Assembly: GCA_000004695.1 (NCBI GenBank)
Contig: CM000153.2
Location: 2,272,001-2,336,000 of the forward strand
Source of the DNA: Dictyostelium discoideum
Lineage: Eukaryota
Direction of reading: 5' to 3'
DNA length: 64,000 nucleotides
The translations under genes and the position numbers were made by a program. Below are positions 53,320-53,710 of the stretch, piece by piece. The notes under the pieces are model-generated. The model saw only the letters and a list, made by a program, of their open reading frames with translations, had not been told where the DNA came from and did no database searches. Numbering within the stretch: position 1 is the stretch's first letter; the number at the start of each line of letters is the position of its first letter.

Positions 53320-53710
53320 TCATTTCAGCTTCAAAAAGAGAAATTCTCAATTTTATGCCAGATTCATTTGGTTATCATAAAGGTCATATTTATTATTCAT
53401 TTGATGGTTTAATTAAAAAAATTTATGTTGGTCTGGTTATAGGAATTTCATAGAGTTTATTGGTAAAAGAGTTTGCAATGTAAAAATGAGTTGAAGAAAC
53501 ATCAAAATCTTTAATTGTAGTGTCATAGAATAATGCCCGATAACTAGAAGATTGATTAAATAATTCACCAACACCACATGAGAAAATATGATATTGTACC
53601 ATTTAAAGCGAAATTTGAAAAGTAGAATACATTTATCATTATTTTGATTTGTTCACATGTACCATTTCTCTTATTCCAACATTTGCTTTATCCATTGGTG
53701 TTGACGTTAT
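53320..53710. pseudogene. Two juxtaposed fragments of the secreted-protein gene at 54080-55024: an inverted copy (about 53320-53425) next to a direct copy (about 53440-53710)
   Basis: 53440-53710 aligns at roughly 85-90% identity with 54270-54540 in the same orientation. 53320-53425 (+ strand reads REILNFMPDSFGYHKGHIYYSFDGLIKKIYVG) is the reverse complement of 54165-54260 (ILNFMPDSFGYHNGYIYYSFKNSLKKISV). There is no intact reading frame. Confidence 0.6.

Follow-up and report, generated by a model that had tools for sequence, protein, structure and literature searches.

A short way downstream of the gene DDB_G0284675 of Dictyostelium discoideum AX4 lies a stretch of about 390 bp that resembles the gene itself, partly in the same and partly in the opposite orientation. 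Is this stretch a recent partial copy of its neighbour, the remains of another gene, an assembly error or a functional element? The window analysed here is the whole stretch of 64,000 nucleotides from position 2,272,001 to 2,336,000 of contig CM000153.2 (GCA_000004695.1), and coordinates refer to it unless a contig is named. DDB_G0284675, hereafter g1, is an intact family gene at 54080-55024 on the minus strand, and its open reading frame of 314 aa gives exactly the protein XP_638469.1 / Q54PA6. We suggest that the stretch, hereafter the relic, is very probably the decayed AX4 orthologue of g2, the second tandem paralogue of DDB_G0284675, and that part of it was inverted in situ.

Similarity between the relic and g1

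The region 53200-53800 was compared with the whole window by blastn, and in a second blastn run AX4 was aligned with L001 after its inverted block had been flipped back. Low complexity was left unmasked in both runs, many hits to A/T runs were returned and only the best matches were used. The direct match joins 53433-53709 to 54258-54537 with 86.4% identity over 280 columns with 2 gaps (E 8e-92), and the inverted match joins 53329-53433 to 54243-54139 with 87.6% identity over 105 nt without gaps (E 1e-32). A repeat search of the window returned the identical direct and inverted pairs, and tblastn found the two pieces with E values of 4e-19 and 5e-11. The same tblastn search found no further paralogue in the 64-kb window besides the relic. 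The initial annotation had reported about 85-90% identity to the gene at 54080-55024, with which these values agree, and its coordinates were nearly right.

The matches persist under a low-complexity (dust) filter, and the GC content of the relic is 25-29%, which is coding-like, against 8-14% in the flanks. The similarity is therefore real, and the possibility that it is confined to low-complexity sequence is ruled out.

The segments of g1 that match the relic, 54139-54243 and 54258-54537, are only 14 nt apart and have the same order in the relic; the gap between the two source segments in the gene amounts to 10-14 nt. The relic is thus one piece of approximately 390 bp, the 3' part of which was flipped in place, and not two non-contiguous pieces of the gene as first described. 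The flipped part had also been taken for the 3' coding end of the gene. That it is inverted holds true, but it is not the end of g1, which continues for 19 more codons (54080-54138). It comes instead from the very 3' end of g2, a shorter paralogue, and against g2 the inverted block widens to 53322-53435. The lack of frame continuity noted earlier was borne out, the direct piece having two frameshifts and in-frame stops. With these lesions, and with the sense strands of the two fragments opposite, a functional spliced paralogue is ruled out as well.

Organization of the relic in AX4

In the orientation of g1, the first feature downstream of the gene is a run of 50 A in the window (53712-53761), which reads as poly-T and is a homopolymer that was already present ancestrally in the intergenic region 3' of g1. 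The idea that the relic could be a retrocopy, raised by this adjacent run, was rejected, since in gene orientation the run precedes the fragment on its 5' side and the relic sits at the syntenic place of a family member. The run is not a retrocopy tail because the same g1 flank and poly-T are present in the related genome ACTFIW (contig L001), where they were read directly.

The run is followed by the direct piece, B', at 53436-53709 on the minus strand. By blastn, tblastn and tree it corresponds to g2 nt ~482-758 (codons ~162-253), and it has the same orientation as g1. It has lost 1 nt near 53664 and 2 nt near 53588, and it contains in-frame stops. Within B', the 42 nt at 53484-53525 (minus strand) are identical to g1 54309-54350 and encode the conserved DTTIKDFDVSSTH motif, with invariant alignment columns. 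Between B' and the inverted block approximately 10 nt, TGGTTTTAAT in ACTFIW, are missing.

The inverted block, A', lies at 53322-53435 and corresponds to g2 nt ~769-885, i.e. the last ~38 codons and the stop region. It was inverted in place, so that its sense strand is now the plus strand, and it is 93.75% identical over 112 nt to L001 12612-12723 in the opposite orientation. Its frame is intact on the plus strand and contains SKREILNFMPDSFGYHKGHIYYSFDGLIKKIYVG; the translation reads ...HKGHIYYSFDGLIKKIYVG.

After the block, the minus strand continues with the ~25 nt that begin the downstream flank of g2, TGATCTAAATTATAAGGAACTAATA (53298-53322). They are collinear with g2 in ACTFIW and a second related genome, ACTFIR; position 53322 is common to A' and this flank. 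The last four codons and stop of a third paralogue, g3, stand at 53282-53296 (minus strand) as GAAGCAATTTTTTAA, encoding EAIF and the stop, and were recognized by comparison with the sister genomes, the ACTFIW counterpart being GAACCAATTTTTTAA. From 53281 on, the sequence is g3 downstream flank and runs to the mucin-like gene, with 53210-49004 collinear with L001 14302-18449. We had considered 53266-53328 as a diverged copy of the last 20 codons of g1, but rejected this because the sister genomes show a g2 downstream flank joined to a g3 tail.

The relic in other assemblies and reads

A second chromosome-level assembly, GCA_054883475.1, encodes the same g1 protein. Compared over 19 kb, this assembly and the window show a single mismatch and twelve differences in homopolymer length, and the relic is identical. 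The 12 homopolymer sites lie within 46891-59236 (e.g. 56245, 53761 and 53178), differ by up to 21 nt and are always longer in the window. The longer A/T runs of the window may reflect either an assembly or technology bias or real instability.

A Logan contig of 1072 nt from the read set SRR28564543 matches g1 without a difference over 55050-54309 and then the relic over 53525-53154, and it crosses both inversion junctions. In this way it links the 5' three-quarters of g1 to the relic. The relic and the inversion thus exist in independent reads. Its single difference is at 53317, where it has the base of ACTFIW and ACTFIR, and it probably comes from a non-identical strain. The contig switches from g1 to the relic through the shared 42 nt (54309-54350 = 53484-53525). 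The switch may be either a k-mer (de Bruijn) chimera or a real deletion allele of ~825 bp formed by recombination. The contig predicts a g1::relic fusion protein of 258 aa (P0003), and if the ~825-bp deletion is real, the strain of SRR28564543 would be without an intact family gene. It should be noted that the exact 42-nt identity between relic and g1 can mislead short-read mapping or assembly.

Dictyostelium DNA is AT-rich, homopolymer-rich and hard to assemble, which is a general reason to ask if the inverted junction is an assembly artefact; nothing specific points that way. With two assemblies agreeing base for base over the relic, and the contig from SRR28564543 spanning both junctions, we regard the chance of an artefact as negligible. 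An exact look-up of the 59-aa open reading frame that crosses the inversion junction gave no match.

Origin of the relic

The best DNA match of both parts of the relic is g2 of ACTFIW. By blastn, 53697-53436 of B' matches L001 12337-12601 with 89.1% identity, and 53433-53322 of A' matches L001 12723-12612 with 93.75% identity in the opposite orientation. Once the inverted block is flipped back, one collinear alignment joins AX4 to L001 12325-12942. In the aligned columns, identity to ACTFIW g2 is 88.0% for the B part and 92.1% for the A part, and identity to AX4 g1 is 86.9% and 83.3%, respectively. The gap in raw identity over B is small (88.0 vs 86.9%), and so the assignment of this part to g2 rests on the shared derived sites in the tree.

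A neighbour-joining tree was built from 388 relic columns, with the inverted block flipped back and 500 bootstraps. The relic forms a clade with ACTFIW g2 and ACTFIR g2 in 100% of the bootstraps (100% for B alone and 99.7% for A alone), and it groups with AX4 g1 in 0%. The g1 genes form their own clade (91%), and the second copy of the related genome ACTFIY joins g3 (94%). Features specific to g2 are found in the relic as well, namely the shorter C-terminus GLIKKIYVG, the downstream flank of g2 and the residues SSCGV.ELFN.SSSYR. Compared with g1, the g2 protein is shorter; its last residues before the stop are HKDHIYYSFNGLIKKIYVGP, with which the translation of A' agrees.

According to the initial annotation the relic was a partial duplicate of the present neighbour, in its full form a recent copy of g1 54139-54537 that was later inverted and partly deleted. 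Identity of 86-88% to g1, the 42-nt identical stretch and a distance to g1 of only 370 bp all speak for such a copy. However, both halves are closer to g2 of the sister genomes, the bootstrap is 0% with g1 against 100% with g2, the C-terminus, downstream flank and residues are those of g2, and the 42-nt identity falls in the most conserved motif of the family. A recent copy of g1 is accordingly very unlikely. What stands of the earlier reading is that the relic is a dead remnant of duplication, inversion and deletion; the gene to which it is closer is g2. As the relic groups with g2 and not with g1, the duplication is old and took place before AX4 split from ACTFIW and ACTFIR.

A further candidate parent is gX, an 84-nt g2-type 3' end with flank that is found at L001 11164-11247 and at 7214-7297 of the ACTFIR contig L002, immediately beyond the poly-T that follows g1. 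This fragment, which AX4 lacks, goes back to a fourth copy that is older still. If the relic were the orthologue of gX, AX4 would have lost g2 and g3 wholly. In AX4 as in ACTFIW and ACTFIR a g2-type fragment begins at the end of the same poly-T, and a few states, e.g. GGT and GAT, are common to the AX4 relic and gX. These states are ancestral, because g1 has them too, and over the 95 comparable nt of the 3' end and flank the relic shares 88.4% identity with g2 and 76.8% with gX. On this difference we assign the relic to g2 and leave gX a slim chance.

The relic derived from g2 has significant homology to the family, occupies the syntenic place of a full-length paralogue in related genomes (loci L001-L003) and carries disabling lesions. 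It is an unannotated duplicated (non-processed) pseudogene with a microinversion, a case of ordinary gene-family decay and no new kind of element. What is recent on the AX4 lineage is only the decay, in the form of two deletions, two frameshifts and one in-situ inversion.

The inversion and the flanking deletions

The sequence beyond the inverted block, TGATCTAAATTATAAGGAACTAATA read from 53322 to 53298, is collinear with the g2 downstream flank of ACTFIW and ACTFIR. B' precedes the block and this flank follows it, both collinear with g2, and the inversion therefore took place in situ. As g1, g3 and all single-copy outgroups are collinear with each other, it is the AX4 lineage that carries the derived, inverted state.

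In gene orientation, the inversion junctions read CCTATAAC joined to CAGACCAAC and GCTGAAA joined to TGATCTAAA. The nearest un-inverted reference is ~10% diverged, so that the breakpoints are placed to about ±3 nt only. Homology at the junctions is at most 1-3 nt. We searched the un-inverted g2 of ACTFIW and ACTFIR and did not find inverted repeats bracketing both breakpoints, only weak AT-rich pairs of 10-22 nt with 73-90% identity. These findings do not agree with recombination between inverted repeats as the cause of the inversion. We suggest that the microinversion of ~114 bp, with the loss of ~10 nt, would have arisen through two nearby breaks and end-joining, or through a replication template switch. 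Microhomology-mediated template switching is a described route to short inversions (PMC5453318, PMC8755829).

Two deletions flank the relic. Compared with ACTFIW, approximately 1.16 kb (L001 ~11164-12325) is absent from AX4, comprising gX, the g2 promoter and the first ~160 codons of g2. This deletion begins at the edge of the poly-T (53761 to 53712), directly after which B' starts. At the other end, at approximately 53297, AX4 jumps from the g2 flank to the last codons and stop of g3 and then to the g3 downstream flank. As the g2 flank is joined to the end of g3, approximately 1.5 kb (L001 ~12753-14262) has been deleted, i.e. the spacer between g2 and g3 and nearly all of g3. The junction lies within the short shared motif AGAAC.A.TT; this is a microhomology-mediated deletion. 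As to the order of the lesions, the function of g2 would have been lost first, with neutral decay following.

The array in related genomes

In all the compared genomes the family is located between the frizzled/smoothened-like gene and the mucin-like gene, beyond which lies PRPP synthetase, as in the window. Two genomes labelled 'D. discoideum', ACTFIW (L001) and ACTFIR (L002), have three copies, g1-g2-g3. Of the two labelled 'D. cf. discoideum', ACTFIY (L003) has two copies and ACTFIZ (L005) has one. D. citrinum (L006), D. dimigraforme (L007) and D. firmibasis (L008) have one copy each. Most of these genomes come from a long-read survey (PMC12745789), in which two tropical isolates count as D. 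discoideum, though diverged, and two others may be cryptic sister species; the D. firmibasis genome was published earlier. The window flanks are 88-90% identical to L001-L003. Over a 4-kb syntenic flank ACTFIW and ACTFIR are only ~89-90% identical to AX4, a difference that is large within a single species and in line with the divergence that the survey describes.

The comparison shows that an ancestor of the D. discoideum clade had g1, g2 and g3 head-to-tail between the frizzled/smoothened-like and the mucin-like genes. Besides g1, the survivors of this array in AX4 are g2 nt ~482-758, the flipped g2 nt ~769-885, ~25 nt of g2 flank and the last 15 nt of g3.

The g1 open reading frame is intact in all eight genomes. 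By comparison, g2 is intact in ACTFIW only and is frameshifted in ACTFIR, and g3 is interrupted by an in-frame stop in ACTFIW and ACTFIR alike, and in ACTFIW its 5' end is missing. The g3-type copy of ACTFIY is wrecked, and a 54-nt segment coding for the signal peptide is inverted in place: L003 11580-11633 corresponds to ACTFIR g3 nt 11-64 with 90.7% identity, its flanks have stayed collinear, and the losses beside it amount to ~260 nt on one side and ~34 nt on the other. Small in-situ inversions with junctional losses thus arose twice, independently, in decaying copies of this family (AX4 g2 and the ACTFIY g3-type copy). On an unlikely reading, two independent microinversions in one small family could point to frequent template-switch mutagenesis in an extremely AT-rich genome.

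The extra copies are decaying in every lineage. The tree node that bears on whether the additional copies of ACTFIZ and D. citrinum were lost or never present has 43-44% bootstrap. The initial annotation had concluded that the family is actively turning over. Copy number does vary among close relatives, from one to three plus relics, but 'active' overstates the case: the family history is one duplication burst followed by parallel decay, with g1 alone intact throughout. The value of the locus is practical above all, as a correction to the annotation beside DDB_G0284675. It is also a record of how a Dictyostelium-restricted family of secreted, putative beta-propeller proteins went through one burst of duplication and is being pruned in parallel to a single gene in several lineages, and the lesions can be read cleanly: one microhomology deletion, another deletion that starts at the edge of a homopolymer, and the microinversions.

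The g1 protein and the neighbouring genes

The g1 protein has a signal peptide and is predicted to be secreted. A protein search gave relatives in Dictyostelium only, several of which are encoded by neighbouring genes on a single contig, and an exhaustive phmmer search over 1.84 billion representatives gave five relatives only, all dictyostelid. One of these is a D. firmibasis protein with an added EGF-like tail. Four family members were scanned against Pfam and had no match at E <= 1; the UniRef label of the g1 protein is DUF5050-containing. AlphaFold2 models the protein as all-beta, with about 24 strands (pLDDT 75.8, pTM 0.77). Among PDB structures, this model is best matched by the YWTD six-bladed propellers of LRP6, LRP2, LDLR and nidogen and by the bacterial BtuG (E ~1e-7, TM ~0.55). 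Based on this model, g1 is predicted to be a secreted YWTD-like six-bladed beta-propeller. A literature search found no paper on DDB_G0284675 or DDB_G0284673.

In all eight genomes g1 stands head-to-head with the frizzled/smoothened-like receptor gene (56521-57498+, plus strand). The best fold hits of the model are LRP5/6, and the pairing recalls that of Frizzled and LRP6, though propeller similarity at TM ~0.55 is generic and the resemblance may be a coincidence.

On the other side of the relic, the mucin-like gene at 52153-53047 (plus strand) contains 33-nt tandem repeats encoding SSGPSTTG(K/R)A, followed by Q/S/G-rich repeats of 12-15 nt and GS-rich repeats of 9 nt. In the second assembly the call of this gene appears to begin further upstream, near 51960.

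Possible function

The relic has no start codon, signal peptide, promoter or continuous frame, and its 3' end lies on the opposite strand. The relic interval contains no called gene. Between the relic and ACTFIW g2 there are 28 nonsynonymous and 8 synonymous codon changes, an about neutral ratio from small counts that cover both branches. As judged from its sequence, the relic is most likely inert DNA.

The inverted arrangement brings up one other reading, in which the A' arm and the 3' coding end of g1 form a hairpin in a g1 read-through transcript and feed RNAi against g1. The arms (54139-54243 and 53329-53433) are 105 nt long, 88% complementary and 705 nt apart. A hypothetical minus-strand transcript from 54260 to 53300 folds with the arms paired and has an MFE of -206.5 kcal/mol, compared with -141.5 ± 6.2 kcal/mol for shuffled sequences (z = -10.5); this excess follows from the inverted repeat itself and thus is not independent evidence. 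If the reading were true, the imperfect dsRNA of ~105 bp could be cut by Dictyostelium Dicer-like enzymes into siRNAs against g1, and the locus would capture, in an amoebozoan, the moment at which inverted duplication gives rise to a small-RNA gene. However, the 75 nt that follow the g1 stop contain three AATAAA signals, all ahead of the relic, and there is no Rfam family in the region: in 52000-56500 there were no Rfam hits save two sub-threshold chance hits (sR5) in the mucin repeats. Nor are the arms homogenised, A' being closer to the foreign g2 than to the g1 arm. The relic evolves at the about neutral ratio given above, and the arrangement is lineage-specific, absent from all sister genomes examined. 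We consider such a role for the hairpin highly improbable. Unless small RNAs derive from it, the relic, taken as inert DNA, opens no new biological question.

Comparison with known systems

Small-RNA loci are known to derive from pseudogenes and inverted duplications, as in the endo-siRNA pseudogenes of mouse oocytes and the inverted-duplication model of plant miRNA birth. As in these loci, an inverted gene fragment lies near an intact member of the family and could pair with g1 mRNA. Unlike in them, polyadenylation signals stand between the relic and g1 arms, the arms are 12% mismatched and not co-evolving, and the hairpin is a hypothetical one.

The relic also has counterparts in the microinversions and short-range template-switch mutations described elsewhere, the template switches involving mostly tens of bases (PMC5453318, PMC8755829, PMC7954356). 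In common with these, a segment of ~114 nt was flipped at its native position, with collinear flanks and a small junctional loss. The inversion is longer than most of the described template switches, its mechanism is indistinguishable from two-break end-joining, and no inverted repeats were found to flank it.

The tgr family of Dictyostelium AX4, with 38 genes and 26 pseudogenes, shows gains, losses and inversions between isolates (PMC12745789). The g1 family resembles such tandem families with birth-and-death evolution in that the relic is truncated, has frameshifts and stops and lies at the syntenic place, that copy number varies, and that other copies decay as well. Unlike tgr, it has very few members, namely a single conserved gene and no more than two additional copies, and it bears no sign of diversifying selection or recurrent duplication; its history is that of a single old burst, followed by loss.
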